DNA of 63,996 nucleotides, the filler included, from Sphacelaria rigidula (Eukaryota), in the NCBI GenBank assembly GCA_964200075.2. It is 3 parts of 3 records of this genome, joined end to end, with 100 filler letters (N's around TTAATTAATTAA, not from the genome) between each part and the next. Parts side by side here need not be neighbours in the genome. Positions count along the whole stretch, not along the records: positions 21,498 to 42,860 come from CAXNAA020000428.1; 2 more parts are not named here. The stretch is one strand, 5' to 3'. Below the pieces are notes generated by a model. That model was given only the letters and a program-made list of their open reading frames with translations. It did not search any database and had not been told where the DNA came from. Positions 3,766-42,796 of the stretch are shown here, one piece after another (within the stretch, counting starts at the first letter, position 1; every line of letters begins with the position of its first letter). The position numbers and the translations under genes were made by a program.

Positions 3766-4220
3766 GAAATTTCATAGCACAACTCTCAAAAACTGAGACG
3801 CGATATCCAGATTTAGGGCATCTAGTGCCTCTGCTCGTAATGTATCGATTTTAGTATGGAACCTTATGTGCGCTATATTTTGAGACGGATAACGTATTAG
3901 GTGAAGGTGAGGGTATCTACCGTCTCACCGTGCTCCCGGGAATGTCCACACCTAAAATCGTCGTCATCCGCTGAATGTGTCGTTCGGGGTTTCATATAGA
4001 TGATAGTATGGACGTTACCTTTGAACGGTATAGGGATTACTATTAATAGATGTGGGGTTTAATCAACGAGAAAATATTGGCCCAGACTTTTGAGCAGATG
4101 GGCACTTTCCCCTTGATGGGACGATTAATAATATGATATGCGGATCACGGCCCAAGTCGTCTGTGCCGATGAGCTATTGCTTTGAGAACTTCAATCCGTT
4201 TCAATTCTAGGCTGACCCAG
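3766..4220 (+). repeat. Interspersed repeat, second copy at 22983-23440
   Basis: Both copies begin GAAATTTCATAGCACAA..CTCAAAAACTGAGACGC.ATATCCAGATTTAG and stay collinear for about 450 bp. Confidence 0.85.
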
Positions 4221-21397: not shown

Positions 21398-21497
21398 NNN
21401 NNNNNNNNNNNNNNNNNNNNNNNNNNNNNNNNNNNNNNNNNTTAATTAATTAANNNNNNNNNNNNNNNNNNNNNNNNNNNNNNNNNNNNNNNNNNNN
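21398..21497. other. Artificial contig spacer
   Basis: 100-nt N run with a central TTAATTAATTAA, which gives stops in all six frames. Confidence 0.97.
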
Positions 21498-21870: not shown

Positions 21871-22620
21871 ATTCATTGACTGATACTGATTCATACTCGC
21901 GGATACTAGGTACAATACCCCACGTCCAAAGTGGGGCAATTGGCAATGTCTGACGATACTGGCAATTTTCTCAGGTTCCTTCGCTGACCACTGCTCATCA
22001 CATTGGGGACCTGAAGATACTAGAACCCGCTCCACATTCCAAAATAACATCATGTGTGCTCAATATTGAGTGACTTGCGGGCTGACCGGGTCATCGGAGG
22101 TCCTGACATCTTTCAGCCCAAATTCCGGCTCTTCTGTATTTTCGGTCGATCGAGCGTATCCCGATCGTGTTTGGAAGAAAAGATGAGTTTTTTCTTCAAA
22201 TTTCCCTAGTTAAATGACTGCATTTCACGGTCAATAACACCCTCCTGATCAACGCGGTATCTACTCGTATCGCCCGAAAACATCGACTAACACCACCAAA
22301 AAACCTCGTACTGGTGGATACCGGAATCCACCCTATCCAACGTTACCGTGTTAATGCTGTAGGGTAAATCAAAGAACGTAAACTTTCAACCACGTGCAGA
22401 CCTCGAGCACTTCGTATCCAGGAATACCAATTCACCTACGAACAAGTGGTAGTACAAGTGTATCATTTCAGCATCACACAAAGCGACGCATAACGCAGCA
22501 GAAAATACCAGCAAGCACGCAGCGGAAGGAAAACCATGGGGCTGGTGTATGTGGGGGTTGACCAGTGGAGTCTTCTTCGTGTGTGTGTATGTGTGTGTGT
22601 ATGTGTGTGTATGTGAGGCA

Positions 22621-22768
22621 GAGTGTCTCTCGCTGTACCTTGATACAGGTACTGGAAAATATCACATGTATCTAGAGTGTCTCTAGCTGTGCCTTGATAC
22701 AGGTACTGGAAAATATCACATGTATCTAGAGTGTCTCTCGCTGTACCTAGATACTGGAAAATATCACA
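22621..22768. repeat. 54-bp tandem repeat, about 2.7 copies
   Basis: GAGTGTCTCT.GCTGT.CCTTGATACAGGTACTGGAAAATATCACATGTATCTA starts at 22621, 22675 and 22729. Confidence 0.9.
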
Positions 22769-23995
22769 TTTCTTTTCGGATTAATGTCACCGGGCATTTC
22801 GCCGAAAAATACCGGCGGATACTGGCGACACTGGGTATTTCGCCACCTCATACTGGCGGATACTGGGGATACTGGGAATTTTTGCCGTCTCGTACGGGTG
22901 GATACTGGCCGTGCCCAGTATAGGGGTACGGGTGATTCTGTACTGGATACTGGCCCCGTACGGGATACGGGGAGCACCTTTGGAAATTTCATAGCACAAT
23001 CCTCAAAAACTGAGACGCTATATCCAGATTTAGTGTATTTAGTGTATTTATTGCCTCTGCTCGTAATATACTTCGAAGTATTGATTTCAGTTTGAAACCT
23101 TTTGTGCGCCATATCTCGAGATAGATAACGAATCAGGTGAAGGTGAGGGAATCTATCGTCTCCCCGTGCTCCAGGGAATGTCCACACCAGAAATCGCCGT
23201 CATCCGCTGAATGTATCGATCGGGGTTTCATATAGATTTTAGTATGGGCACTATCTCCGTACAGTATAGGAATTACTACACATGGGGTTTCATCAACGAG
23301 AAAATATTGGCCCAGACTTTGGAGTAGATGCGAACCTTCCCCTTTATTAAACGATTAATGCGATATGCAGATCACGGCCCAACTCGTCTGTGTCGATGAG
23401 ATATCGCTTTAAGAGCGTCATCCCGTTTTTAGGCTGGTCCAGCGCTCCTACAATGGTACATATAATAGTACTACCCAAAACAACCCTGAGAGAAAACAAC
23501 GATGTATACGATATATGTGGAATGGTTTGTCAGCTAACCGGTCGTCGGGGGTCCTATGAGTATCCAGCCCCGTGTTCTCGATCGAATCAATCCCTAGTGT
23601 TGTGGTGATCGTCCAGGCTCAGTTTTCGCAATTTCTTCCCCTTCATTGCGCTACAGCCGAAAAGCGTTCGGTGCTTTTGGCCCAAAAAAATTAGGTAATG
23701 GCACCTCCGCCACGGAAACGAGGTTATACCCCGTATCGCCCCGACAGCACAAAGCTGGAAGGTACTTCCCGTGAACAACATGCTTCTGGTTTCAAGGTAT
23801 ACCGACTCCAGAACTTTTGAGTAAAAAGAAAAAGCCTGCACGAAAAATCCTCGATAAAGTGAATTAATCGTGTTCTTGAATGGTCGACTTCTGTAACAAG
23901 TCCCAACATGCCAAACTGATGAACTGATCACGTTGTCCACGAACTACAGCTACAACTACAGGACTTCGATCTCGTGGCGAACACCACCTATCTCG

Positions 23996-26900
23996 TCACG
24001 TACATACCTTGAAAGCCACCTGCAGATCGTGAGACCCGAGTTTTCCCTCCACCACGTTGAGCGATCGCCGGAAAAACTCCGCGGCTTCACCCGCGCGCCC
24101 CATCCCGTGCCCACCCTGTTCACGAATCACCTGTCCGATTTCTTGTAAGGTCACCGCTACGCGCATATCCTGCTCCCCCAAACATGCCTCTTGGATTTCC
24201 AGCACTCGCCGCAGGAAACTCTCGGCCTCGGCTCTCTGTCCCGCCTCCCGAGCCCACCGGGACACGCTGCACAGCGTATCAGCCACACGCATGTCAGCTC
24301 CCAGATTTTCTTCCTCGATCGCGAGTGCTCGCCGAAGCAAGTCCGCCGCCTCAGCAGCTTGCCCCTGCTCGTGAATACAGTGACCCAGCTCGTGCAACGT
24401 GTTCGCAACGCGCATGTCTTCCTGTCCGACCTCTTGCTCCTCAATGGACAGCGCTCGCCTCAGCAACTCCTCCGCCTCACCTAAGCGCCCGCACCCGCGA
24501 ACGCACGCCCCGAGCAACTTCAGCTTGGACGCCACCTCCACGTTGGGACCCATCGCCTCCTCGATGGCCAGCGACCGGCGGTAATAGACCTCTGCATCCC
24601 GCAGCTTACCGCTTTCGTGCATACATCTTCCCAGCTCACAGACCGTTTCGCTCACCTGTGAAGCGCACGAGATCAAGCCCACGACACAGAGCACAGAGCG
24701 CACAGCACACGATCGGCAGCGTATAGCTGGTCAAAGTACAAGTGCATCATTCCACATCTCTGGTGGCTATCCCTGGTGGCCGTTGGGCTGAGCGCTAGTA
24801 AGACGCACCCTCCACGCATCATCCATCATGTAGCCGTAGCCGTAGTCATCCGGCTATATGTCGACCGCTTCAGCCAAAGAACATGCACAAACAACTATAC
24901 GTGATTTTCTTTGGTCGTGCTTGGTCAATCACATCACGAAATCACATCGTGGAAATCCTCACGACAGCACACTCGCAGCATAACTTACACTTCCCTCGTG
25001 GTGGCAGTTAAAATTGTTGACTATACACTATACACTGTACGCTGTACACTGTACACCGTACGTTTCTTGTCTATTGCAACTATAGACCATTTTTTGTCCA
25101 AGGTGTGTACAGTATACACGCCCTCATGTTTGAAACTCGTGCTATGCACCACACCAGTACCGGTGCTCCCCCGCATATACGGAGCTGACACAACATGACT
25201 GCAGATGAAGATAATTTCTCATCAAAATGGGTTAGGGTTAGGGTCGTCACCTGTACGTCGTCGGGGTCAAGCTTGGCTTCCATTATTGTCAGGGCCCGTC
25301 GCAGTAAACCCTCAGCCTCGCGGGGCCTTCCACTCCCCCTCACGCATCGGGCCAGCCAGCCTAGCGTCACCGCCACCTGTTGGGTTGAGGTAGATCGACA
25401 TGGTTTTGAGTGGAAACAGGTGGTGACCTAGAATACAAAGTATGACTGTTCCTGCGCGGTCCTTACCCTGACAAGAGTCTTTCACGAGAGATGTGACAAA
25501 TGCACGAACCGTCCTTAGGTACATCGGTGTACGTCGGTGCACAGGATAGAAAGTACGAATTGTTGTCAGCATCCATTTGTGATCGCCAAGCTAGAGATAC
25601 TTGTTGCGAACGGTGTTGTGGGCATCTAGCTTCACTCCCTATTTGGCATCCAAACCATGCGAACCATGCATGTGCTGCGGTGCTCCAACCCCACCCTGAG
25701 AAAGAACCAACGAACCCAACCTCGATTGCCGGTACATGGTATCCAGTACACAGTACACAGCTTCGAAACACACCTTCACGTGGTCAGGCCCCAGAGCGGC
25801 TTCTCGAATCTCCAGAGCCCTGGCGAAGAACGCCTCCGCCTCCTTGGGGCGTTGGTCGTCTCGAATGCACCGGCCCAGCTCTCCCAAAATTACGGCTACC
25901 TGCATTATGACGTCACCAGCAGGAGCGGAGGAGCTCGCAGTTACAACCCCACACGCCACATGGTGCTCGTCGTACTTTTTGAAGAAGGAGCAAAACCAAA
26001 AATGGTTCACGGTTGGCTCGAAATGCATGCTGATGTTAGTACGGAAATGGATACAGACTCTAACCTCCCCCTTCCTCTGCATCGCCGCGCATACGTTACA
26101 GTAGCATGTACTACACACTGCACACGCAAAACCAGTCACCACCAGTCCATGGAGCGAATACTATGTAGCCATACGGCATAGCTGAGGGCGTTGAAGGCTA
26201 CTTATTGTTGTACCTTGGGGGGAAAAAACGCATGTAGCCCGACAGAATTGGGATAGTGTCAAACGGTTGCGTCATGTCACCACCGTGTAACACACGTACC
26301 GTTATCCCATCTTTTGAGGAACTTCTTCACTGTACCCCACTGCACAGTAATGTCGCCAACTAGAGATGGGTTGCAGTCACATGTAGTCATGACATTATAC
26401 AAAATTGAAAAATATATATGGACAATGAACGCTCTCCGACCGCGGGGTCATTTCGCGACGGTCCACTGCCTGCACAACCTAAATGCTGTAAATGGCAGTG
26501 GGGAGTAATTGGTCGATTCATTGGTTGATTGACCGACTCTTCAACATACCGCACCTGCAAGTCTTTCGGGCCTAGCTTGCGTTCCTTGATATCTAGGGCT
26601 TGCTGTAGGAAGCCTTCCGCTTCCTTAAAACGCTTTCGATCACGAAGACAGCGACCGATCTCGTGTAATATTTTAGCCACCTCAGCATCGATGGGTCCCA
26701 GTTTGACCTCCTGGATAGCCAGCGCCCGCTGCAGCATATCTTCGGCTTCGGCATACCTTTCACCGGGACCCGCGCGGACACAGCGACCCAGCTTGGCAAG
26801 CGTAATACCCACGGCCATGGCATCAGGTCCCAGCATTGCTTCTTCGATGGACAGAGCCCGGCGGTAACAGGCCTCTGCCTCCGGCCAGTGATCACTCTCT

Positions 26901-29900
26901 TCAATGCAGTCGCCCAAGTCATGCAGCGTCACGCACAGACAAACATCCTCGGGATGCAGGTGATCCTCTTCGATCGCCAGCTTTCGCCTTAACAGCACCT
27001 CCGCCTCCGACATCTTTTTCTCCTTTCGAAGACACTCGCTCAGCTTTCCCAGGGTTACGGCAACCTTCGTGTGCGGGTACGAGGGTTACGTAGTGAACAC
27101 TTAGGGGACATGATTGATAATTGCACGGGAACCTTCTTCGTCGGAGCGCAGGTGACTCGACCTCCACGGAGAAGCCGTGGATCAACGATCAACAACACTC
27201 AACTGTCGGCGAGAGCCCGATGGCCAACCTCGACGATAGAGCAAACATGCCAAGGCATGTTGTACACGATATACGCAGAATGGATTGAATGGGGAAGTGA
27301 ATTGTGATACCCATAATAATGTTTGATCGATACGGGCGAAGTACGACAAAATGCAACCCGTCACGCACAGGACAGTATCCACATTATAAATAATAGTGAT
27401 ATACGCTGCCACACCAATGCAAACGCGAGGATCTCAGGATGTCAGCATGGCAGCAAACAAACCGAAATCACTCCACTCCCAGTCCGTTTTGTGCACCTCA
27501 TCTCACCTCCATCAGATCACGCCCCCTCTTTATGCATCATACATCATAATGCACCATCATACATTATGGGGGATTGGTGCCATGCCGGGGGGTAGATAAA
27601 TATGAATATAAAGGTAAAGATAAGGATAAGGATATATGCTCACATGCTCTGGTGAAAATCTCAGCGTCTTTGTACCATCCGTACCTTGGGGTGGGCAACT
27701 CCAAGTTTGTTTTCTTGTATGGCGAGCGCCCTGCGGAGGAGATTCCCTGCCGAAGCCGAGTCGCGCACGCAGAGGGCCAGCTCGAAAAGTGTGCTAGCCA
27801 CGCGCATAGCATTTGCTCCTAGTTTGGTCTCTCTGATGGCTAGAGCTCGCCGCAAATGAGTCTCCGCTTGGGACCGCTGCCCTGCTTCTCTCAGACATCG
27901 CCCAGTCTCAAACAGAGTGAGCGCCAGCCTGACTGCATCAGGGCCCAGCTCTGCTTCTCGAATCGCCAACGCTTTGGCAAAATATTGCTGCGCGTCACCA
28001 GGTCGCCCCGCTTCTCTCAGGCACCTCCCAAGTTCGTGGAGAGTTACCGCGAGGTGGACCTCATCGAGCTTCTTTTCCTCAATGGCCAGCGCTCTTTTGA
28101 ATAGGACTTCCGCCTCACCAGGCCGGCCTGAGCCTCGCACACACCACGCGAGTTCGTGAAGAGTTATGGACAGTTGAAGATCGTCTGGATCGAGTCTTTC
28201 CTCCCGGATACGAAGAGCCTTTCGACAAATCCCCTCCGCCTCTCCAGGCCGTCCCATCTGGTCGTCACGCGTAGTCATAATCATGCATAGTTGGGCGTTT
28301 GCAACACCGGGAGGATTGAGTAAAAAACAACGTTTTCATGGACGTGACAAGCTCACTCGTGCCATCTCTGCTACTTTGTGTAGGGCTCTGAGATATACTC
28401 CCTCCCCTCCCCCGAAAGGGATGCGCGGTCAATGATCAAACGACCGAGACAAGCAAGGTAGGAGTAAGCCGCCCCCTGCCCCCACCCCCGGAAGGGAAAG
28501 GGGAGGGGACCCAGCGGCCCGAAGCAAATACACTAAGGCCAAACCGGAAACGGGAAGAACAATCAAGCAAGGGAAAATAGAAGTAAAAACGGCGGAGAGA
28601 GAACAATAGATAAAAGGAGACTGGATAATAATTGGGAAAGGAAGTTGAGAATAGGATCGTGGAACGTGTGTGGATTCGCCACAGACGAGCGCAAAAGAAT
28701 AGAGATGGCCCAACAAGTAAGTAAACGTGACCTAGATAAATTGGAAATACAAGAGTCATGGGAGAAAGAGAGGGTGGAAATAGGATGCAAGGTTGAAGAG
28801 TATGCACGGGTAGGGAAAAAGTGGAAGGGATAGAAGCCCAAGAGTAGGGGAGCGGGGGGGGTAGGATTCTTAGTCAAGGAATACCTGTGGCAGAATAGAA
28901 GTGATCGACGACACCAAATTCGATGAGAGCATATGGATAAGGGTACCAGGAGAGCGGGGAACGAAGTATTTCTTCGTATGGAACATCTACATGCCCTCAG
29001 AATGGAGGGGTAGGGAACACGATATACAGCGGAGGTTCGGAGAGATAGCAGCAGATGTACATACGTATAGTGGGAGATTTCAATGCAAGGGTTGGAAAAG
29101 CAGGTCAACCGGGTGATATCATTGGGCAATACGGGAAGATAAAAAGAACACGAATGGCGTAGAAATGCTCAAGTTCCTTGAGAATGACGAGATCAAGACG
29201 CTGAACGATAAGGCACGAAAACCAGAGGCGCAATGGACATGGACTGGAAAATACGAAGACGAGAGAGAACGTTCCGTTCTTGACTATATAGTGGTAAAGC
29301 ATGGTTAAATAGTTAAGAAATGGAAGTACATGTATGCGCGGAGGGCGTGGGAACTACAGATTATTGCCATATATGGACAAAAAGGCAACATACGAGAGCT
29401 CGAACAAATAGGCGGGCGGGGTCGGAAGTTGTACAAATGAAGAATCGATGGCCAAAAATGCAGCGAAATCTTCCGAGCTGTTGAATAGCGTAGGTACAAC
29501 TGATACCGAAATGGGAAGGGATCGGGTAGGGGCGAAGATTACTCAAGGATGGGAAGAGTTGGTCAAGAACACAGCGAGTAAGGTCATAATGAAGAAATTG
29601 ATCGTATACGACAGAGCAGCAAAAGGTGGGACGAGGAAGTAAAAGGCTATAACAGTAAGGAGCGAGATCCACGCAAGATATACGGAGTAAAACTACGGCA
29701 GAGTGGGAGGAATACACCCAAGTTCGAAAGGGCGTAAAAAATATGGTAGAGAAGGAAGAGGAGGGAGTATGGGAAGATGTAAGAATAAAACAAATGTGTG
29801 TAGGGATAGAGAGGATAATGGGAAATCAGGTAGGAAAGATGGACAAGTGCATTGCTACACTCCGGGCACAGAACGGTAAAATGGTCAGTAGTTCGAAGGA

Positions 29901-32900
29901 GAAGAGAGAAGTGCTAGTCGAGCACTACCGTAAACTAGGAACACCAAAAACGAACACGAAGTTCGATACGGAATTCGAAGCAGACATCAACGGGTGGGCA
30001 GAGGCTAATGTAGAGGCGTCAAAACTGGAGGATAGTGGCTCCACAGAATAGCAGAGAGAGTGTACCAGACACGAAGTGAAGGAGTGTGTAGCGAAACTCA
30101 AGAAACAGAAATGCAGCAGGGGTAGAAAAAATATAGTGGATAAACCTCTAAAGTACGGGGAGAGGGGATGATAACGATGGTGGCTATGCTGTATAACTGG
30201 ATCTGGGAAAACGACAACACACCTACGAGGTGAAGAAAGGGAGTAGCAGTCAACCCCTTCAAGAAAGGAGACAAGGCTGACCCAGGGAATTATAGAGGGA
30301 TAACGCTGCTGAGCACGGTAGGGAAAACATTGTGTAAGGTTCTGAACGTTAGTGGGAACGACGCTAGAAAAATAAGTCAGCGAGGGGCAAGCAGGTTTTC
30401 GACTAAACAGTACTTGCGTAGATCATGTGTACACGCTAGGTAAGATTATTCAAGGTACGAAAGGATTCGTGTTCGTGAGTATCCGTGCGAGCGACGAGAC
30501 ATGGAACATTGTAAGACAGGAAGGGTACGGGCTACACCAAGCTACACCATGCTACACCAAGACGGCACGTGTATGACCTAGCCAAAAAATAAAAATACAA
30601 GTGATGAGAACCCCCCTACGGTTGCACCTCTCTCACTACTTGCTCACTAGATACTATACACATCGTGACAAAAAATCATAACTATGACGTCATCAGATAC
30701 CTCACTCGATGCTGCGGTACTATACAGTTGTCGTACTGCCAGCTCACCTCGCGGATACATCTCGCAAGCTCATGCAAAGTCAGTGCCACTTGAAGATCCT
30801 GCGACCCGAGATTTGCCCCTCTAACAGCCAGCGCTCTCCTGAACAAAATTTCCGCCTCGCCCAGCTGCCCCATCTCTCGAACGCAGAGCCCGATCTCATG
30901 TGTCGTGAACGCCACCTGAACGTTGTCCGGACCGAGGTTTGTCTGTTCGATCTCGAGCGCCCGCCGAAACGACACCTGCGCAAGCTCAGGCTTTCCCAGC
31001 TCCCAGTCACACCTTCCAAGCTCGTGGAGTGTGACAGACACCACCATGTCACTAGGACCGAGCTTTTTTTCCCTGATTGCTAGGGCTCTCACAAAGTACT
31101 GCTTGGCATCGGCCGGGTTCCCCGCCTCGCGGACACATCTACCGAGCTCGTGGAGGGTCAGAGCGACGTGTACATCATCACTTCCCAGCTTGGCCTCTCG
31201 AATAGACAGCCCCCTCTGGAAGAACTTCTGGGCAGAGCCAGGGTCGCCGCTCTCTCGAAGACAGATGCCGAGCCAATCCAGAGTGACCGCTACCTGCACC
31301 GGCGGCACCCCGCCCAGAGACAACTTGGCCTCTTCTATCTCCAACACTCTCGCGAAATACTGCCGAGCGTCTGCCGGGTGCCCCGCCTTCGTGTAAGACG
31401 AACAACACAGCGATAATATCCAAGAGCTCAAACGAACATCGGATTTGGTTCGCGCACGAGGGGCATCGTCCTCTTTTATCGCCATCGCCATCGTCATTTT
31501 TGTCGACAGCATACGGGACGAGCAAATATGACTGCCACTCGCATCACATGAAAATAAATTGCACGCGTCTGTCTTCTTGCAATGTACAGCTCGGAGGAGT
31601 CACGGAGTAGATTATGTTCCTTCTCCCAGCTGGATGTTACGCTGAACGAGGAGTGTCTCGAACTAACACGGGAGCGCGAAGCTAGGACGCTGAAACAAAA
31701 ACGCCTGCACCACGCCCAAGGATTATCTCCCGCACACGACTTCCGTGTCTCGTGTTTAATTTTGGATCCGCTGACCACGCGGGCAGCATACATATACAGA
31801 ATCTGTGGCCTGCAGGTCCAGCATGCTGTGCTAGCATGTCGTACGTTTGAGGGGAGGAGAAGGATACGACTAATTCTCGCGGCCTTGTGGGCTAGCATAT
31901 GAAGCCTTTCAAGCCTTTGGACCAATCACACCCTGGATAATCACGATGGATCACGTTGTAAAAAGTGTACTGCGTACAGTATGGAGTATTTTGTCAATTA
32001 GACGCAATAGAATATGCAGTACGCAGTACTCTCTTCGAAAGTGTAAATGTATTGCATTGTCATCATCCAGGGTGTGCTTTCTTTGGGCTAGCCCAAAACC
32101 AAAAGGGGTTCGAATTAAGTGTGCATGCTCATCGTCCCCTCACCTCCCATACGCATCTTCCGAGCTCGTAGAGCGTAAAAGCCACCTGGGCACGACGGCG
32201 CGAACGGACGGCAGACAGCAGCACAAGATAGACAGCAGGCAGCACAAGATAAGAAACAAGTAGCATCAAGTCAGCACCCAGCATCCTTCATCAAACAATG
32301 CTCCCGCCGTTCAAGACTGCATACTGTACTGTGATAGCATGCCCATACCACAGGACCCATCTTAAAGCTGCGGAAGGAGTACTCGTACTCAAGTTCCCAA
32401 ATGTGTCAACATGTGTCGAGATGTGAGTGACGACAATCCGTGCCGTTTTGACTTTATTTTTCCTACCTGCCTTTTGCTTTCATACGACACTTCACGACAC
32501 TCCGACAGGAAGTGCCATACATATCCATCATCAAGTAGTACCACACTCGGAGCTATATTCCGTGAAGATCGGAAATGGTTTGTCTAACCATTAACCACTT
32601 AAATCGTACATAGTGTGCGAGCCAAACAGCCCCACCCCAGCAAAGGGAGCCCCGCTGAAGGAGCCGTGCCGGAGGCGCATTTTGACGCGATTTGGCTTTA
32701 CTAGAGCTAAAAATGCGTTAAATTTGGGACAATTTTTAAGTGCAAAGGCATAGCGCACTTGGCTCGGAATTTCGGTTTGAAAAAAATAGCCCATTTTAAA
32801 AATTTTAATCGAAAAAAAATAGGACCGTCTTTTCTCGTCTGTTTAATTTTTTGATCGAAAGAAAATATAACTGAAGTGCGAGCCATCGATGGTCAAGGCT

Positions 32901-35900
32901 GGCCGCGAGCTCAAGCCAGGCAGCGTGGCAGAGCACCATGGGTGTGCTGTGCACCGCCTGGAGTCGACAGCGAGAATACACCTAAAGCCTGGTGGTCCGT
33001 CCTCCTCGTACGCTTAATCTTGTCTCAAGTCTTCAGTCGGTGTACCTTCTCCTCAGGGGGAGTCCTCCCCCGGTGGCTGCGGCACATGGTGAAACACCCA
33101 TGAGGCAGTGTGTAAGACGTGGCTGTCTCTGGAAATGACAGAAAATAAAGCAACTCATTTGAGACTGTCATCCAAATGCAAGAAAATCAGTAGGCTTCGG
33201 GTCGAACAATCTTAGCAGGATGCAGCTCATCCTTCATGCGACTCGCCTAACAAACACGGCGCTTCGCGCTTGGTGANNNNNNNNNNTGGTCTTATGACTA
33301 TGGCATGCATGATCATGAGTACACCCCCTCCTCCGGTGGCTGCGCTGGTGCCGGCTCAGACGCTTTCGCCCCCGCGTGATCTGTGCTGTCACCGCTGCCA
33401 TGTTCTGAGCCCAATAACATCGCCGATGGCCTCCGTGGTGGGGCGGGGGTTGCGCTCTGGCATGTCCTCTGCGTCTCTTTGTGCGCTGGAGTGTGTCCTG
33501 CAGCCCAGGACTGCTGCTGCATGTTGTGTATTGTCTGCTGTAGCTGTGTGCTGTATGTGGCATACGTAGCCAGTAACGGTGAATAATGGTTTGAAAACCA
33601 TTATCCATTTTTTTCATATAACCATTACCATTATTGCCATCATGCCACTACCATTATTGCCATCATGGAGATAATGACCAGTTAAAACTGGTACCATTTC
33701 CGGGCTCTAATATTCCGAGCCCCAACCGGGGAGGGGTGCTTTGAACACCTTCAAAACGCGCGCTTGTTCGAGTTGACAGATACAACGCAGTCAAACCCCT
33801 CACTCAACGGTAGTGAAAAAAAACAAACAGAAACGTATCATGTACGAAGTATCATGTATTATGTATCATTTATCATGTACCGGAGAAAGGACGGACAGTG
33901 CAGCGCAGTACAGTACGATACAACCCAGTACAGTGTTGGTACCGTAGATCGAGCGAAAATAACCGCGGGTTGATGAATTGAAAAAATCGAATTGATGTTG
34001 GTGTTTGTGTTGGTGACTAAAGAAACAATGAAAAGCAGCTTGTGCTGCGAAATTGCCTGTGGACAGCCGCGCATCCCGGAGGGAGAAGGTATGATAGGAA
34101 TATATACTGTTAATACTCTACATATGACGTCACTCAATCACCTAATCGGTCGGTGCCTCAAGAGTACCTCCAACCGTTGACCGCGTAGATTTTTGGATCT
34201 TTACTGAAGGAGCATTTGCATATCAAAGTCAAGTAATCGACGTCCACATTGGTATACATGGACTCAAAATGACTTTCTCCGCAGCCAAGGGGTTCATTGA
34301 GCGACTCCTCTGCCAGTTTCGGAGATTTTGATTCGTGTTTGGCCCCAAGAATTCGGGGGGGGGGGTGAAGAGGGAAGCTACGTCACCGTTAGACTCCGTC
34401 AGTAGTTGCCGTTCTCACCTGGTCGCTGTCCCGTCCTAGCTTTGCCTCCTCAATCGCTAAAACTCGCTGAAGCAACCCGATTGCCTCTTCGGCGCGCCCG
34501 GCCTGTGCAACCAGGATTCAGGAAGAGTACGCAGAGCATGGAAAAGATCAAGAGCATCAACAGCAAAAGTTGTCACGGAACGAAATGCTTGTGGATGCTG
34601 ATGACCAGGATCCGGATCTACATCTGACTCAAATACAACTACACACCTATTCGAACCTGCAAAGTCAAGCCCATCGAAAAAAACTTGAAGCCACCAAGGG
34701 TCTCATTTTCTCACCTCCCACACACACCGTCCAAGGCCATAGAGCATAAAAGCCACCTGGCCATCGTCAGACGCCTTCTTGGCCTCTTCGATCTCCAGCG
34801 CCCTTCGATAAAAAGGCTCCGCCTCCTTCGGCCGGCCGTCTTCGCGTATACACCGCCCCAGCTCGTAGAGGGTTACGGCAACCATGACGTGGAACTCTCC
34901 AAGCCTCGCCTCCTCGATCTCCAGTGCCAGCCGGAAGTGCTTTTCGGCCTCCGCTGCTTGCCCCTTCTCGCGCATGCAGCAGCCAAGCATGTGCCTCGCA
35001 AAGGCAACCCGGGGATGTTCTGGACTCAGTTTGGCTTCTTCCCGGGATGCCAGCGCTCGACGGCACAACGATTCCGCCTCTTTATTCCGCCCTGTTGTAC
35101 TGGAGCAGAGGGCCAGGATGAACAGCGAGGAGACATAATCTAGGCTGCTCATAGTGGTCGTATCGCCCGCAGAGTCAGATCCAGATCCAGAGCCATCGTC
35201 CTGTTTCCATCGGTCCATGGATGGGTCGTCCAGAATTCCTTCCAGCTGACGACGCAAGTGCGCTTCCTCCTTCTCTCTCCCACTACTGGCGACACTGTCA
35301 ATGGACACGCGCAGAGCACTCGCCACGTGGAGGAGACCCACTGTCCCCGGGGCGGCTTTGTGCGCATCTAAAACCCTCTGCATTACCTTCGCCGCCCCTT
35401 CGTGGTCACCTTCCACCTCGTGCAGCAGCGCAACCGCTTCCACCGAGGGAAGGTACGTGGCGTCGCTCTTGTCTAGCTTGGCAAGAGCCTTCTCGTAAGG
35501 CCGACTTCGACGCCACCCGTCGCCACCCACGCGCTCAACAGCGTTCCACAATCTTACGAGAGCGAAAACGTCGTGCGAGATGGTTGCTCTCAGGGAGGAA
35601 ATGTGCTCGGTCCACCGGGTGATGACCGCCTGGCGCAAGTCTTCTCTTTGAAGGAGGCGTTCCCTGGCGTCCGCAGCGCAAGCCTTTGGCAAACTGAACG
35701 TTCCCTTCCCTCGGGCATCCAAGACGCCCCAGTGTTCCAGGGCCGCGACGGCTGCCTCTAGCGCCTGTTCGTTATCGCCAGTACTGGCAATCGTTCCGCG
35801 GTCATCCACTACGGCCTCATTGTGCACAAGGGCGTACACATCCTCCATACTGAAAACATGCTCGTCGGGCATAATGGCGGCGGCGAGATACAGATCCTGC

Positions 35901-38900
35901 TGCGTGCTGTTTCCTTGCCCGAGAGCCAAGCCAGTCAGGAAAATAGCAACTCGCCGCATAGTGTCTTCACTCCTAGTGCGGCTATTTGGATTCACCTTTG
36001 GCCTGACCTTCGCCTTGCTTGCCCGTGACAGCTCTTGCCGGATTTGTGCAGCGGCTTCCGACCATAACCTCTCATCGGCGCACCTCCGTAGATCGCTCCA
36101 CCTCGCCACGTACTCCAGATCCAGGGGCGAACGGCCACAGAGCTCGACCAGCTCACCCGCCGCTGTGGGAAGCGGGTGCGGAACCTCTGCAGCATTTCCA
36201 AGCAAGGCGTACGCCTCTTGTTGCGAGAGTTTGTCCACTAGCAGGGGCTTCCCATCCACTTCAACCACCAAGTCGAGATATCTGGTCGTCATCAAAATCC
36301 AAACTCCCGTCTTCTGCAGTTCCGCCACCACTCCTCCATCACAAACGTCGTCGGCTACGACGAGACACTTGTTCTTTCTCCCTCTTGTGCCATCCACAAC
36401 ATCCCCAACGTATTCCAGCAGCTGCTCCGACCATGTGGGCGTGGGAGCGGGTCCGACCTCGCGCGGTGTACCCTGTTGACTTTGGCAGCTCATGGACACG
36501 TGCTGGATGAGCGCGGGAAGGCGATCCTTGGCATTGACGCCGATGCTCAACCACACGATGCCGTCGCAGAAAAATTCCAGCACCTCCTTGCTCCTCACGA
36601 TCTGCGAAGCAACGGTAGTCTTGCCCGAACCACTGTCCCCCACCAGTCCCAGCACCTGCGGTCGTCCATCGCCCCTGAAAGTGTCGTACACGCTGTCAAT
36701 GATGTCACTTCGCTCCACGTGCCAATCCTTCCGAGCTGGCGTCTCGTAGGTGGGCGCGCCCGTGGAGCAAGAGCTTGCCGGCACCGCTTCGCCCTGCGCG
36801 TGCATCTGCGTGTAGTGTGGTACGTCGCCACCGAAGTGAGGGCGGATTGTTAGGAGTGTTACAGTATTCGAAATTTCAAATTTCCGAGAAACTTCCCATA
36901 CCCACAAAGTGGTGAACCAACCTCGTCGTCAACCAGAGGAACACAGCACACCGCACGAGGAAATGGCGCGTGACAGTACAACGGACCAACCCTGGGGCTG
37001 TACTGTGCCTTCTCGAAACAAGATAAAAATCTGTTCGCACACAGCACACAGACTTCTGCCCACGACGACCACTCAGACGAGTCTGTGCCTCGATGCAAGC
37101 CATATCTGCGCACAGCTTCGAAATGTGATGGTCCCAGCAGTGGTGACCGGTCCAACGTCTGTGTGCTGGATGGTGTAGTAGAGGAAAGACGCCACAAGGA
37201 AGCACATCACCAATAACACCTACACCTACACCTACACACCGAGCACCGAAAAAACACACGCAAATACTCACCATACTCGCCATTTACGCAAAATTACTCC
37301 ACCGCTGACCCTTTTTATTAGTCATCTACCCTCTGCACACAACAGTCTTCGTCTCTGTCGGAAATCCGTTCATTATCGGAGAAGGGTGGCCGCGTGCATG
37401 TCGATCTCAACCAAAATCGAGCCGTTCGCAACTTGAATGTGTGCTTGTTTTAGGTTTTCTCCTTGGAATCTGACCAAATCGACTACATAAAGGCACAACG
37501 TGCTCAGGTGATCAGCAGCTACGACTTGAGTAATGTGTCTCTTGTTCGCGGGGGTAGTGAGGACTGAGGACTGGGGCCCCCACTTTGGCGTGTTGTTTTG
37601 TTGGCTTGTGTGTCGCATCTTTGCACATGCCCCGCGTTCATGTTCCCCTTCGAGCTTACAGATTGTCAGTTTGCGCTAACAGATTTTTGAGAAAATAGAT
37701 TTTTCTGCCTAGGTGAGACAAGGGCTAAGGGCCTGGGGGCATGTCTTATATTTTTCATGACCAGCAAGAACAAGCGGCGGAATTGAGAAATTCGGATCTG
37801 ATAGGTCCACGTAATTCATGTTCCTAATTGCGTCACTTCATTTTCTTTGTTTTTGTGCTTTTTTTTTCGAAAAGGTCTACAACAACAGTGCCGCGTCTTA
37901 GCACACCATTTTTCGACAAAAAAAGTGCCATGGAAAACAAGAATTTCGATCTGATAGGCCGTGATTTCAACGGCAGTCAACATAAATTACGATCGTTAGA
38001 ATTTTCCCCTATGAGATCGGGGTTTTTCTTTTCCGCCGCACATTCTCCATCGAAAAATGATGTGATAAGACTTGCCCTAAGGGCGCCCTAAGGGCGTGTC
38101 TTAGCACCCTTTTTTTTTCGATCGAAAAAGTGCGGTCGATTTTTTTTCGCCGATCTGATAGGTCCACCACATTTATGTTCCCAGAAGGCTTCAACTCAAA
38201 CTTATCACTAGCGGCGCGCGGAGAAGAATGCATCGAGGTAAAAAACAATTGTTTTCGATCGAAAACATGCGGTCGAAAGGCACAAAGCGGCACTTGACTC
38301 CTATCTTGCAGACCACCACGCCAGATAACACCTGTTCACAGGACCATGCAAACCCCATCCAACTTAATCTCAGCTAGCACTGTAACCCTGCAGCATAGAG
38401 CTTGAGATGAGCCCACAGATAGATACACTACAGTAGTTGGTTGTGCTTTGTTTGTTTTTGTTGGCGAAAACTTGCGCATCTTCTCTCATGGTAGGGACCA
38501 GCGACGGAACTGCATGGTACGGTGGGCAACCGAGTTGCGCGCACGCTCATGGACAGTGCAGGCAGCACAAAGCTGCACGTTGCTAAAGTCCTCTTCACGT
38601 CGCATTGTAAGCAGAGAGAGCTGATGGTCCTGGGCTGTCTGCACTGCACGTTGCCCGCTTCTCTCTGATACCCTCCTGAACGAAACACGCACACACGCCA
38701 CACTGCTTGCAAGTAGTGCAGACGGTACAGAGTGTCTGTACTGTAGACGAGTGACCATGTGCCGTTTCACGAATTTCACTGTATTTTATCAATTGAAAGC
38801 TTGAAAATCCATCTGGACCCAACTGCATCAAAACGAGAAAATTTCGCTGAGATCGATTCCATCACCCTATTTTTTCGATCGATAAAAAACAACTGCGAAG

Positions 38901-41900
38901 ACACGCCCTAATCGTACCGTAGCTTGTTTGAGCGAAAATGCGGCGCAAAAAACTGCCATACAAAACGAACGCACGTCCAGGTCATATTAATAATACTCAT
39001 ACGAGCTGGGCTGGCAGTGAATCCCACATTCTCTCTCCTCACCACAACTCTTCGAATTTCCCAAATCAGCGCGACCTGAGCATATCGCTGTGAACTGCAG
39101 ACTAAGCTGGTGACATGAAGCACCGCCGCTGCTCAATTGGCGCACTTTTGGCGATGATGTCATTGTACTGCATTGAGTACCGAGTACATGCCAAGTCTTT
39201 GTGTGATAGCGTGTCTGGAGACGTTTCGTTTCAGAGAATGCGGGGGAATTACGATAGTAAATTCCGCCGCACAGGCAGGCGAACACCTGATATGCGCAGC
39301 CGAAAGCAGACTGACTGGTACTTTACTGCTGCAAGATGGGATCAAGGTCGTCAACAGCTCCATCATCATGCGAGAGAACCTCCGAGCCAAGTGTCGTGTA
39401 TCACCGCACGAGGGAGAAGTACTACTTGAAACTGCGCTATACCCCCTCCAGAGGCAATACCGTCACCGAAAAATCGAGGCTCTTTGCAACCCAGAGGTAC
39501 GAGAGATAATGCCCGATTAGTATGCACAAAAAAAGTTTTTGTCATGTCGGGATTCGAACTCGTGACCTGTGTAAGTTCGGGCTGTTGTAACAATTTGACC
39601 ACCGGGTTCACACAAAAAGTGCGACGCTAAGCCCAATTTTACGGATTTTCAAGGATGTGGTTGACGCGAGTGCCCGTATGTGTCGGAGCGTTGTCATCGT
39701 TGTTATCCATTTTTGAGGAAGTTAAAGCATTTTTCCTGTTTTTGCTGAAACTTAAACTCGCTCTTCCTCTTTTTTTTCATTCCCCGTGACACCACTCACA
39801 GGGTTTCGCGTATTGATAATGAAAATGTCGTGTCAAATTTTCAGCGCCCAACTCTTGAATTGCCAAAAAGCATCTCAATTCTTCGTTTCAAAATCACTGA
39901 TGGCCGGCCCAGCTCGTATTGTAGTGTGATGTGCCATGATGGAAACGTGTGCTCGACATTTCACATTTTCACACGTCGGACAGATGATGATCCGTCTGAA
40001 AATTAGTTTTTCTCAGTATAGTGATGGGGATCATGATCCGTATCATCTGACCCTACTTTTCCATGTTTGCTCCTTACGGTGCCGAACGCTGAGCATGCCG
40101 AGTAGTGCAAATGTTGCGCTTTGGCTTTACTGATGACTCCGCTGTCACATATTTTGTGTTTTTGGACCGACGCACTCGAGAGTCTTCTTTCATTAGTTGT
40201 TTCAGACAGATCATGATCTATCCGACGTATGCACATTTTAGCGCATGCCCCGGCACTTACAGGCACTCAGACTCCACGCCTGACACGTTCAGAGGAACCG
40301 TAGCCACAGTACACCAGGTAAGGCGCACTTTTCCCCAGAGGTGTTGGAGGGATATTGGCCGAGCAGCAGCCATCTGTCTGAAAGATTGCTTCGATTCTCT
40401 GCCAAAAGACGTCGGTTTGATGTGATGCATGTCCAACAACAGACAATGCTGCTCCAGTTTGGAATCGATTGACACCAAACCAAACATGTCATCAGCGAGC
40501 TGATGAAGAACTACAGTACCCTCCGGGCTATCTATACATGGGGTGCCGCATCGGACGCAGCGTATGGCGTGATCACCATGACCGAGAGAACAAGTATTAC
40601 ATACGAGTATAATATCAGGAGGCGGGGGATGCTATTTGTCGTTGGTTGCTAAAAGGCCAACTCTTATGGGAGCGTTCAGAATTTTATATTGCAATAATTT
40701 TGATCGACCTTTTTTTTCTTCCTTTGCCGTAGTTGTGTATTTTGTGCCCGTTCACCATGACGACGAAGAAGAAAAAAAAACTCCTCTGAAATTGTTGCAA
40801 AATAAAAATTTCAAACGCTCCCATAAGAGTTGGCCTAAGGTCCACCGCATCTTCTCGCTGCGGACTGTGGACTTGGAATTCGCTCGGACCCAAAACGCAC
40901 GAAAGGAACGAATTCGCACCGGACCGATTCCAGGTTTCTTTGGGGCTGAAAATATTATGATAAGACACGCCTCGAAAAGTGGTTTTGACAGATAGGTGGA
41001 GCCCACGACCGCTCGCCGAATGAGTATGAATGTTTCTGCTATCAACTATAATATCACGTAGCGAAGGTGATACAGTACGATACTACACGAGCACTGGATA
41101 GTGCATACTGCAATACTACTGTAAGCAATACCGAATGGACATGACGCCGTCTGCGGATTCCTCCACAAACAACCCCCCGCACTGTCAGCAAGTGCCGTAA
41201 ACTCCCTTTCACCCGACGATCTCTATGATACGATGCGTGGTACCAAACTTGTTCACGATTGTACTGTGACTTGTTTTCCTATCATAGGAAGTAGAGCGAG
41301 TCAAGTCCAACAGTGCAGTCAACGTCAAACAACTCTCAGTTACAGTACAGTACGGTGCCGTACTTGTATGCGGCGCGCCCGTGGAAGGTTTTGAGAAAAT
41401 GGAGTGCAAGTTTCTTTTGTCAATTTTCTCATCATCGTCTCGGGTGATATTCGTACAAAACAGACCGTATACACCATCACTATTATAAACATTACTCTTC
41501 AGCAAGGTCTTAACGTCTCAAACAAGGAAGCACAATCTAAACTCAAGACACGGACTACAACGAAAGGTGGTTGCGCAATTTCGCCGACCTTGTGACTTAC
41601 GGTTCGTAGCTTACACCCTGCGGCGTCGTTACCAGCCGGACCCACGGTCACCTCCAGTTTATCGACCCGGTCTTGCAGGCTGACAATGTCGCTCAGCGTT
41701 TTGGAACTCCAGCTTTCGGCGAACAGGAACACCTGGTTCAAGCAGGCCTCCACTGGCTGCGCGTATGATGGAGCGTCGGACTTGGAGCGTCGGCTCTTCA
41801 CAATGGCACAAGATATAACGCTCACGCACGTTTCTCGCAATTTGTCCAGCTCCAGTTTGTGGTTCTCCAGAACTTCCGACCTGGCAGTGATTGCCTTGAG

Positions 41901-42047
41901 CAGTCGGAACGACTCCGTGAAGGTGGGAAATTCTTTGCCGAAGTCACGTACAAATGCCACCCCTCCCACAGAAGACCCTATCCTTGTGGACAGCTCGGCA
42001 GCTTCAGATGCCACCTCCAGTCCCTCCACGGAAACATCGGCAACCAT
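23996..42047 (-). CDS. NLR-like protein: N-terminal helical domain + NB-ARC + about 25 TPR (42-aa) repeats
   Basis: Predicted exons, all joined by phase-0 introns: 42047-41601, 36805-34715, 34502-34419, 32185-32144, 31386-30748, 28257-27685, 27064-26555, 25899-25774, 25376-25251, 24655-24008 (or reading through to the stop at 23996). The TPR consensus VAxTLxELGRCxRExGxxxEAExxxRRALxIxExKLG continues in register across every TPR-array junction. The 3' end is uncertain. Confidence 0.9.
28400..30460 (+). mobile_element. Degenerate non-LTR retrotransposon (LINE): APE endonuclease and start of reverse transcriptase, in an NLR intron
   Basis: Frameshifted fragments LRIGSWNVCG, IQESW, GGVGFLVKE, GDFNARVG and SVLDYIVV are endonuclease motifs. 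KKGDKADPGNYRGITLLSTVGK, QAGFR and CVDHVYTL are early RT motifs. There are many stops and frameshifts. Confidence 0.9.
34715..36805 (-). CDS. NB-ARC (STAND NTPase) exon plus first TPR repeats
   Basis: P-loop GDSGSGKTT, RNBS-A-like FFCDGIVWLSIG, Walker B CLVVADDVCD, RNBS-B ILMTTR, RNBS-C VDKLSQQEAYALL and GLPL-equivalent CGRSPLDL, followed by TPRs. The exon is 697 codons between a CAG acceptor and a GTGAGA donor. Confidence 0.93.
38092..38908. mobile_element. PIF/Harbinger-type MITE (817 bp); related copies 21153-21397 and about 56110-56720
   Basis: The TIR is GGGCGTGTCTTAGCA / TGCGAAGACACGCCC with TAA on both sides. The internal sequence matches the other two copies. Confidence 0.85.
41601..42047 (-). 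CDS. First coding exon of the NLR-like gene; predicted helical bundle resembling the MLKL N-terminal domain
   Basis: 149 codons run from the ATG at 42047 to a strong GTAAGT donor in phase 0, compatible with the NB-ARC exon. The sequence is amphipathic-helical (FPTFTESFRLLKAITARSEVLENHKLELDKLRETC). Both the link to the NB-ARC exon and the domain call are inferred. Confidence 0.65.
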
Positions 42048-42796
42048 GAATATCGGACCAATACTGCGGCAAGACCTCGAGTTGCCTTTCAAGGGTAAAG
42101 ACAGCAAGTGGATCGAGCAAACTTCGAGTTTCAGTGCCTGCCTCTGCTTTCGGAAACTGCAGATCATGTGCTGTAGGGTATTACATACGGTTACTACCTG
42201 ACAGCACGGGTTCCTCGGACCTGTAAAGTGGAAGATTTGGCTATACTTTCGTTACATGAAACATGATGATATCCGATAACCAAGACCTTGGGAATGCTTT
42301 CCATCAAGTTGAGTTGTAAATTTGGTGGTGGGGACGTTCGCCTTATATGATGGCTCGTACAGGGGGGGCAGTCAGTAGTGATAGGGTGGCAATATGTTGA
42401 TTTTTCATCAACGGCTCAGGAATTGCACAGAAGGTGAGGTTTAAACGGTCGTACAGAACAGCAGCATCTTTGTTGTTCTCTACTTGCTGCCTGTAAGAAT
42501 GTTACGTATACATGACAAGCAGATAATGATGTAGACGGCGCTTGATGTTACGACAGCAAGCCGTTCCATGCTTGTTCGTTTGGCAATGCTGTACTGCACT
42601 ACTGTTGTGTAAGCAGCACCCACAACAACAGTGAGTGTCCGATCCCATGGAACTGATTCAATGGTTGGGAGCTAATATCCACGAGCATTGTCTTCGAGGA
42701 CAAGTGTAGGAGTAAAATAGTAGTACTACTCGTACAGAGTATGAGTATCAATTTTGTATGACACGAGAATGTTGAACGGTTGTAGGTACAGTACAT

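Follow-up and report, generated by a model that had tools for sequence, protein, structure and literature searches.

A minus-strand region of the window (the whole stretch of 63,996 nt from Sphacelaria rigidula that was analysed) represents, with a probability of about 0.7, the sensor half of one expressed and intact brown-algal NB-ARC-TPR gene of the STAND / NLR-like type. The predicted order on this strand is most likely a 149-aa MLKL_N-like helical domain, followed by NB-ARC, a linker, and 25 TPR repeats of 42 aa each, the repeats C-terminal to NB-ARC having been counted by stacking. In the three RNA runs examined, the gene is constitutively spliced and every exon is included.

The sensor is encoded by nine minus-strand exons. 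E1 (34715..36805; 697 aa) encodes NB-ARC and, beyond a helical linker, the first three TPR repeats and helix A of the fourth, and ends with CVWE directly before a GTGAGA donor. E2 (34419..34502; 28 aa) supplies helix B and the loop of repeat 4, and E3 (32144..32185; 14 aa) helix A of repeat 5, E2 being placed by RNA joints and stacking and E3 by RNA and stacking. E4 (30748..31386; 213 aa) leads from helix B of repeat 5 to helix A of repeat 10, E5 (27685..28257; 191 aa) from helix B of repeat 10 to repeat 14, and E6 (26555..27064; 170 aa) holds repeats 15-18. E7 (25774..25899) and E8 (25251..25376), each of 126 nt and 42 aa, carry repeats 19 and 20, respectively, and E9 (24008..24655; 216 aa) contains repeats 21-25 together with a four-residue stub (VAFK) of a 26th. 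Together, the nine exons E1 to E9 sum up to 4839 nt with no in-frame stop. Expressed as repeat content, E1 itself provides 3.3 further repeats, E2 and E3 0.67 and 0.33, E4 5.07, E5 4.55, E6 4.05, E7 and E8 one each, and E9 5.14; the “about 4.7” of an earlier, sequence-only reading is really 4.55. One-repeat exons are thus restricted to E7 and E8 (2 of the 25 repeats), another repeat is divided 14+28, and the remaining 22 are spread over E1, E4, E5, E6, and E9. Position 24008 is not the end of the gene, since a ninth phase-0 donor (AAG/GTATGT, the slash marking the splice site) lies there, four residues into the 26th repeat, and is used in RNA.

Two introns hold repetitive DNA. A multi-copy repeat in intron 4 (28436..30600, plus strand) consists of broken ORF fragments outside the coding capacity of the gene. 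Its word depth amounts to thousands in each of the four runs, compared to about 40-170 for the exons; 0/4 of its ORF fragments tested matched Pfam, and both skews, GC and AT, shift abruptly at 28001-30000. Intron 2 contains a very high-copy repeat (32680..33750, without assigned strand) with a word depth of 33,000-88,000, an assembly gap (N run 33277-33286), and many loose ends at 33287 and 33328.

Within E1, the Pfam profile NB-ARC (PF00931) scored 56.7 bits against a cut-off of 23.5 (E 2.8e-15), and 58.7 bits (E 6.9e-16) with the shorter stretch 35600-36805, profile positions 4-226 of 248 being aligned. The translation of E1 reads GDSGSGKT and LVVADD, a P-loop and a Walker-B-like motif, respectively, both of them intact. 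TPR_12/TPR_10 matched each large exon (TPR_12 on E1 at E 8.8e-28), and with NB-ARC above the cut-off the gene can be regarded as NLR-like, as had been proposed. The succession of NB-ARC and C-terminal TPR, together with homology to brown-algal members, places it in the brown-algal NB-ARC-TPR family. Homologues were found across brown algae, including Ectocarpus spp., Scytosiphon, Laminaria, Pylaiella, and Ascophyllum. Ectocarpus provides homologues of E1 that are 34-42% identical, whereas the closest named protein comes from Sphacelaria rigidula and is identical over the matched segments. In P0039, a relative with 85% identity, the ORF ends three residues past the same CVWE and the position of intron 1 is therefore conserved, while the ORF-level homologues P0041, P0042, and P0043 (62-65% identical) break at repeat residue 19-20, neither 14 nor 42, so intron positions are unstable across the clade. 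Fused arrays are common there, an unbroken ORF holding 3 to 16 TPRs among 38 ORF-level homologues.

The 149-aa exon situated 4.8 kb upstream of E1 most likely belongs to the same gene. Its ORF starts with the ATG at 42047 and ends at a phase-0 donor, ACC/GTAAGT, after 41601 (41601..42047, minus strand); the predicted splice from 41601 to 36805 would remove an intron of 4795 nt (36806..41600, minus strand, GTAAGT..CAG). Its assignment as first coding exon is derived from the ORF and from 32 homologues (E up to 1e-3), of which the top-scoring one (153 aa) is 78% identical and has the same end point, and the junction with E1 aligns without a break to P0042 (51% over 271 aa) and P0060 (Ectocarpus sp.), homologues in which this domain is fused to NB-ARC. 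Pfam MLKL_N (PF22215) was matched by 12 of the 28 aligned homologues (best E 9.1e-6), and the precomputed Pfam lists of P0060 and of P0126 from Ascophyllum nodosum include MLKL_N, NB-ARC, and TPR. The 149 aa of the window did not match MLKL_N, either on their own (E up to 1) or in a scan of the members of the homologue alignment (E up to 0.01); their sole Pfam match was a chance-level one to Dynamitin (E 0.069). A lead from Atlas connected them with a score of 0.89 to a cluster with 36% MLKL_N members. AlphaFold2, run with the alignment, predicted an all-helix bundle (pLDDT 75), for which Foldseek revealed nothing at E up to 1e-3, and a profile search of PDB sequences reached MLKL only at E 0.07. 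With VIA-align, Z values of 8.0 for the MLA13 coiled-coil, 7.2 for NRG1.1, 7.0 for MLKL (4btf), and 6.3 for AtMLKL3 were obtained, which is the helical-bundle background range.

The introns of the array follow its repeat register. According to the 25-repeat stack, introns 1, 3, and 4 are located after repeat residue 14 (CxxE), and introns 2, 5, 6, 7, and 8 after residue 42, directly before V; all eight have an AG acceptor with an in-frame GT donor upstream, and all eight are in phase 0. This arrangement, described in the sequence-only reading, was confirmed by the stack and by spliced RNA contigs, and the restriction to two positions holds for the eight introns named there but not for the ninth, which at 24008 adds a third register. 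All nine introns within or adjoining the array are therefore in phase 0. It was also rightly stated that matched-register skipping, with any pair of residue-14 or residue-42 donor and acceptor, keeps both the frame and the repeat register. While the residue-14 donors are all GTGAG, those at residue 42 are more varied (GTACGG, GTGCGG, GTGTGT, GTGACG). The exon-exon junctions read AG/G in 8/8 cases and AG/GT in 5/5 residue-42 junctions, and AG/GT also occurs at 6 of 20 residue-42 boundaries that have no intron, a pattern compatible both with the loss of introns from proto-splice sites and with their gain there; telling gain from loss requires related genomes. Under independent random insertion, the chance of all eight introns being in phase 0 is 1.5e-4, that of all eight being confined to two of the 126 possible register positions about 3e-11, and 4e-7 if insertion is restricted to AG/G sites (16 out of 100 of which fall on one or other of the two registers), although such a null is inappropriate for tandem repeats, whose copies inherit the positions of their introns.

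Transcription was followed in Logan contigs of three RNA runs (X6, X7, X8), all from one study; such contigs drop rare variants, and minor isoforms may therefore be missed. In each of the three runs, all eight joints recur exactly within one spliced contig (6.5 to 8.4 kb); read on the plus strand, they have CT..AC ends. This contig covers 4839 nt, the full length of the nine exons, at a word depth of 134-171. E1 is one uninterrupted piece (34714-36805) in 3/3 runs, and the joints 34501/34714 and 32182/34416 are likewise present in 3/3. The contig pieces begin at the acceptor 36805 and stop exactly at 24008 in all three, beyond which the contigs continue outside 22000-38000 for 1690 nt (X6, X7) or 2990 nt (X8); beyond 36805, they continue for 885 nt (X7) and 557 nt (X8), which are unplaced. 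No alternative exon-exon joint was detected among the 15 strongest of 69 joints.

The repeats of the array are old: pairwise amino acid identity averages 44% and peaks at 0.67, neighbouring copies hardly resemble each other more than distant ones do (0.47 vs. 0.44), and only two weak DNA self-matches were found across 14.5 kb. The region of E3 resembles the end of E1 with 81% over 54 nt, extending 5 nt into the donor side and 7 nt into the acceptor side, and since this likeness reaches into the introns, at least one repeat was duplicated complete with its intron position. The array probably grew by duplication of repeat units together with introns at AG/G sites. Many of these introns would have been lost afterwards, so that exons with several repeats, two with a single repeat, and one repeat divided by an intron were left, and the phase-0 introns at fixed repeat positions would be the legacy of this growth. 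Simple duplication of a single exon-intron unit does not explain two registers and a third at 24008. Outside the exons, the repeat HMM gave no match with E below 1 in six-frame ORFs of the whole window, tblastn gave none at E up to 1e-3 beyond the exon blocks and their immediate edges, and no inactivated TPR exons were found in introns or on the other strand.

These observations bear on the question whether the locus generates more than one receptor. Combinatorial alternative splicing, by which exons of matching register would be skipped or chosen to give different TPR sets, perhaps only on challenge, agrees with nine introns in phase 0, with junction types that match within each class, with E7 and E8 as exact 126-nt cassettes, and with the lesser uniformity of the residue-42 donors. 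A public gene model, P0040 (Sphacelaria rigidula, partial, beginning and ending inside exons), joins the E1 donor to the E5 acceptor and so skips E2-E4 in register. Alternative splicing of NB-ARC-TPR genes is reportedly, going by its title, the subject of Teng et al. 2023 (Plant J 114:246). For brown-algal ROCO genes, alternative splicing of the repeat exons is described in an excerpt of Teng et al. 2024 (PMC11378527). P0040 is doubtful, however, as it also leaves out 16 aa and 148 aa inside E1, where the RNA contigs are unbroken, and for the 148-aa gap no GT..AG was found within 8 nt either way. With one contig including all nine exons in every run and only 2/25 repeats that could be skipped singly, this explanation is unlikely. 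Its narrower, condition-dependent form, in which pathogen challenge leads to new pairings between donors and acceptors of like register and the three RNA runs represent the default isoform, we judge to be quite unlikely; if true, an E1-E5 join, loss of E7 and/or E8, or use of in-register AG/GT donors inside the long exons would be expected, and a single gene would yield several MLKL_N-like/NB-ARC receptors differing in their TPR surfaces. Somatic or germline exon shuffling, with recombination between TPR exons and an exon content varying by strain or cell, was proposed for the NB-ARC-TPR family (Zambounis 2012, PMC3341825), and the repeats of P0001, a homologue from Scytosiphon, are nearly identical to one another (74% identity at lag 42), pointing to a recent expansion elsewhere in this family. 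At the present locus, the divergence of the repeats, the scarcity of DNA self-matches, and the lack of intronic or antisense TPR remnants speak against it, and low-depth contigs of run X5 showed 0-1 differences each from the window and no structural joint inside the gene among the eight pieces listed, so that we consider shuffling very improbable. In view of full-inclusion contigs, missing pseudo-exons, diverged repeats, and 2/25 single-repeat exons, the combinatorial receptor repertoire suggested by the sequence-only reading finds little support, and a constitutively spliced NB-ARC-TPR gene remains the preferred interpretation.

By analogy with STAND/NLR proteins, the TPR solenoid of such a gene product would hold the ATPase off and bind a ligand, whereupon nucleotide exchange and oligomerisation through NB-ARC might gather the N-terminal helical bundles, whose target would be a membrane or some downstream partner, the outcome probably being defence-related cell death. 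A three-part layout with an MLKL_N-like N-terminus is that of cell-death NLRs in fungi and plants, and this layout, together with the MLKL_N matches in homologues, argues against a rather unlikely non-immune role, in which the same gene with the same splicing would encode a STAND ATPase scaffold of stress signalling or development whose TPR array binds an endogenous partner. Such a role would suit a gene transcribed in three runs for which no challenge is known, having repeats that are diverged and stable with no rapid turnover; in the literature examined, no functional test of any brown-algal NB-ARC-TPR gene was found, and ROCO relatives react to many stresses according to an excerpt of PMC11378527. 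On the other hand, an excerpt of a preprint (bioRxiv 10.1101/2024.02.19.579948) states that the family expanded during brown-algal diversification and groups it with immunity-related families.

Compared to known systems, the gene shares with executioner NLRs the predicted order of a helical N-terminal domain, NB-ARC, and a repeat sensor, and its N-terminal homologues match MLKL_N (12/28); it differs in having a TPR sensor instead of LRR, WD40, or ANK. An N-terminal four-helix-bundle executioner domain is found in MLKL_N/HeLo-like fungal NLRs and in plant CC-NLRs such as ZAR1 and MLA. The Ectocarpus background invoked for exon shuffling of NB-ARC-TPR and LRR-ROCO genes is indeed in print (PMC3341825): 13 of 24 NB-ARC-TPR genes have a TPR domain of 42-aa exons, with inactivated TPR exons in introns. 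The combinatorial reading as such is already known from Zambounis 2012 (PMC3341825) and, by title, Teng 2023, the latter being summarised in one sentence of an excerpt of PMC12879055. Like the Ectocarpus genes, ours combines NB-ARC with C-terminal TPR, a 42-aa period, phase-0 introns in repeat register, and 126-nt exons (E7, E8). The “repetitive TPR exon” clade is characterised by one-repeat 126-nt exons and inactivated intronic exons, and neither feature holds for this array, in which 2/25 repeats are single exons, one is split 14+28, the others are grouped four to five to an exon, no pseudo-exons were found, and introns occupy three registers. Brown-algal LRR-ROCO genes possess 72-nt LRR exons (called phase 2) and a ROC-COR GTPase, and those of Ectocarpus up to nine splice variants, as given in an excerpt of Teng et al. 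2024 (PMC11378527). Our gene resembles them in its repeat sensor encoded by in-frame exons, an arrangement from which, as proposed in the same excerpt for LRR-ROCO, exon shuffling and alternative splicing could derive a repertoire, and differs by its TPR sensor, its NB-ARC switch, and the one isoform seen. Dscam is named there as an analogy for LRR-ROCO; as in Dscam-type arrays, tandem homologous exons could be swapped here without a change of frame, but while Dscam uses one cassette per cluster by a dedicated mechanism, all exons stand together in the transcript seen.

On the minus strand, a stop-to-stop frame of 741 codons (36928..34703) encodes a P-loop and TPRs and is followed downstream by a string of further TPR-coding frames. 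The gene they make up is divided into nine exons, namely E1 (36805..34715), E2 (34502..34419), E3 (32185..32144), E4 (31386..30748), E5 (28257..27685), E6 (27064..26555), E7 (25899..25774), E8 (25376..25251), and E9 (24655..24008); all eight acceptors proposed in a sequence-only reading end in AG, and an in-frame GT donor follows each exon. Pfam placed an NB-ARC domain in E1 (E-value 2.8e-15; score 56.7 bits, cut-off 23.5) and revealed TPR_12/TPR_10 matches in E1, E4, E5, E6, and E9. Resolved with a profile built from E7 and E8 as seeds and then stacked with MAFFT, the TPR array consists of 25 repeats with a period of 42 residues, plus a four-residue stub, and E2 to E9 carry 0.67, 0.33, 5.07, 4.55, 4.05, 1, 1, and 5.14 repeats.

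The repeat stack bears out the observation that all eight introns of the array are in phase 0 and sit at two positions of the repeat, introns 1, 3, and 4 following residue 14 (after CxxE) and introns 2, 5, 6, 7, and 8 following residue 42 (before V). AG/G (the slash marking the exon boundary) is found at 8/8 exon junctions, and AG/GT at 5/5 residue-42 junctions and also at 6/20 residue-42 boundaries without an intron. Under independent random insertion, a null that leaves out the inheritance of introns by repeat copies, the chance of all introns being in phase 0 is 1.5e-4 and that of only two of 126 registers being used is about 3e-11, or 4e-7 when insertion is limited to AG/G sites, 16 of 100 of which lie at these two registers.

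Eleven sequencing runs were listed and four (X5–X8) compared with the window; none was recorded as RNA, X6–X9 being guessed to be so, and the spliced contigs of X6–X8 show that these three contain cDNA. In each of these, which belong to one study, a single contig (6529 nt in X6, 7414 nt in X7, and 8388 nt in X8) spans all eight joints, the intron ends reading CT..AC on the plus strand. Positions 1691–6529 of the X6 and X7 contigs, 4839 nt, correspond exactly to E1 to E9, the 126 letters between E4 and E1 being E3 plus E2, so that the proposed exon model is correct at 8/8 joints and every exon is present in the transcript seen. None of the 15 joints listed is an alternative exon-exon joint, a further 54 joints being weaker, and contigs as such lose rare transcript forms. 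Short, low-depth contigs of X5 also match the window, in eight listed pieces with 0–1 differences each.

At the 3' side, the contig pieces end exactly at 24008, and the contigs run on for 1690 nt (X6, X7) or 2990 nt (X8) in sequence that falls outside 22000–38000. The AAG/GTATGT at 24008 is thus a ninth phase-0 donor, lying at a third register of the repeat, and neither the restriction to two intron positions nor an end of the gene at 24008 holds. The continuing part of the transcript is not TPR-like, TPR-like sequence being found nowhere else in the window. In a search for longer proteins, none matched E9 with more than 48% identity, and thus no transcript-derived protein of this gene was found; with E1 as query, no full-length copy appeared, the best of the longer proteins being 36% identical. 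At the 5' side, the contig pieces begin at 36805 (CAG/ATG), and the X7 and X8 contigs extend 885 and 557 nt further.

The E1 query also found P0040, an "unnamed protein product, partial [Sphacelaria rigidula]", which matches the window exactly over separate segments (residues 23–259, 276–473, 622–697, and 953–1073). It thus models this very locus, covering 27895–36739 (minus strand) and both beginning and finishing inside exons. It omits 16 and 148 amino acids inside E1 and connects the donor of E1 with the acceptor of E5, dropping E2–E4 in register. We regard this model as unreliable, since E1 is unbroken in the RNA contigs, no GT..AG lies within 8 nt either way of the 148-aa gap, and the 16-aa gap would mean a 48-nt intron. 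It was probably built on homology, and its annotation probably needs correcting. Its E1–E5 join is the single outside support for in-register exon skipping; as proof of skipping, we rejected it, the internal E1 gaps being contradicted by the RNA contigs.

The idea that one locus might yield a combinatorial receptor repertoire from interchangeable in-frame TPR exons is correct in its arithmetic of frame and register and in its gene family, and the RNA and DNA evidence available here does not support it. A tblastn search with all exons against the window found nothing away from the exons and nothing on the plus strand, and the repeat HMM gave no match with an E-value below 1 outside the exons among six-frame ORFs of at least 8 aa. 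Self-comparison of 23000–37500 with blastn yielded two matches only: E3 resembles the terminal part of E1 at 81% over 54 nt, a similarity that reaches beyond the exon by 5 nt on the donor side and by 7 nt on the acceptor side, and E7 matches E1 over 75 nt. Pairwise repeat identity has a mean of 0.44 and a maximum of 0.67, adjacent repeats averaging 0.47 versus 0.44 for non-adjacent ones; a Scytosiphon homologue reaches an identity of 0.74 at lag 42. The TPR array here is old and stable and not recently shuffled. Most likely, this is an unexceptional gene of a known family with constitutive splicing, the intron pattern of which would be a record of how the repeat array grew.

Nor is the inference of a repertoire new, having already been published for the brown-algal NB-ARC-TPR family. 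Alternative splicing in NB-ARC-TPR genes is reportedly, judged by its title, the subject of Teng et al. 2023, a paper cited by Teng 2024. PMC12879055 summarises Teng et al. 2023, and Teng et al. 2024 describe LRR exons of ROCO genes as alternatively spliced (PMC11378527). Zambounis et al. 2012 (PMC3341825) describes 24 NB-ARC-TPR genes in Ectocarpus, with TPR domains built from 42-aa exons in 13 of the 24, inactivated TPR exons in introns, and successive phase-0 exon pairs, and proposes somatic recombination; the statement that these genes had been published as exon-shuffling candidates is accurate, the shuffling being a hypothesis there, restated in PMC13449251 and PMC10197012. A literature search on Sphacelaria NB-ARC returned a single match (bioRxiv 10.1101/2024.02.19.579948), which places the NB-ARC-TPR family among expanded immunity-related families. 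In the literature surveyed, we found no functional test of any brown-algal NB-ARC-TPR member.

Among relatives, P0038 represents the same ORF as E1 (essentially 100% identity), and the ORF of P0039, an 85% relative, stops three residues past the same CVWE, so that intron 1 is conserved. Ectocarpus proteins are 34–42% identical to E1. Across 38 ORF-level homologues, the unbroken ORF contains 3 to 16 TPRs and ends at many registers, residue 14 being used only in P0038, the window's own, and P0039. The ORFs of three homologues with 62–65% identity (P0041, P0042, and P0043) break after residue 19–20, following GRPG, and not after 14 or 42; judged from these frames, they may have a further intron register, an ORF end being no proof of an intron.

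Two introns contain repeats. Opposite in strand to the gene, intron 4 harbors a multi-copy repeat with broken ORFs (28436–30600, plus strand), with a word depth of thousands in each of the four runs and a strongly skewed composition; by eye it looks LINE-like (endonuclease, reverse transcriptase), and the four ORF fragments tested gave no Pfam match. The extremely high-copy repeat in intron 2 (32680–33750, word depth 33,000–88,000) surrounds a gap of 10 Ns and shows numerous loose ends as well as poly-C tails at 33327/33328; the assembly is uncertain there. Multi-copy sequence (word depth 500–13,900) also lies just downstream of E9, at 23068–23601 and 22000–22533, with a TG/CA-rich microsatellite near 22570–22618 and a similar simple repeat at 37205–37244. 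Two 44-N gaps lie at 21398–21497. The next gene downstream in the window, on the same strand (about 6900–14758), looks like an XPG/EXO1-type nuclease: XPG_I was matched at 10533–10868 (minus strand, E-value 1.1e-15), and ORFs 14758–14324 and 9913–9662 contain stretches that, by eye, resemble XPG-N and helix-hairpin-helix.

Upstream of the NB-ARC exon, an ORF (42251..41502, minus strand) contains a candidate N-terminal exon (41601–42047, minus strand) for a 149-aa helical domain, with its ATG at 42047; the GTAAGT donor following 41601 shares its phase with the acceptor at 36805. The domain has 32 homologues, the best being 78% identical and 153 aa long, with the same end point, and its junction with E1 aligns unbroken with P0042 (51% over 271 aa) and with P0060 from Ectocarpus sp. 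P0007, an N-terminal homologue, and P0041, an NB-ARC homologue, both list a longest contig of 18,442 nt and may stem from one contig. Pfam MLKL_N was matched by 12 of 28 aligned members (best E-value 9.1e-6) and not by the window's own copy; it occurs together with NB-ARC and TPR in the brown-algal proteins P0060 and P0126. AlphaFold2 with the alignment gave a helical bundle (pLDDT 75); a poor single-sequence model (pLDDT 56.6) was left out of structure searching. Foldseek against the PDB returned nothing at E-values up to 1e-3, a PDB profile search reached MLKL at 0.07, and VIA-align Z scores of 6.3–8.0 for the MLA13 coiled-coil domain, NRG1.1, MLKL, and AtMLKL3 lie within the helical-bundle background. 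With moderate confidence, we regard the domain as MLKL_N-like; our literature search found no paper on such an N-terminus in brown-algal NB-ARC-TPR genes, which Teng et al. 2023 may cover.

NB-ARC-TPR proteins are the main candidate intracellular immune receptors of brown algae, and this locus provides a clean, RNA-checked exon model of a long family member outside Ectocarpus, correcting a fragmentary public gene model. It is also a counter-example, as in-frame, in-register introns alone are no proof of combinatorial exon use. By analogy, the gene product would be a STAND switch gated by a ligand and with a helical bundle as its output, and the likely MLKL_N-like N-terminus suggests that this output might be membrane attack or cell death. 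If true, such an output ties the NLR-like proteins of brown algae to the executioner domains of fungi, plants, and animals.
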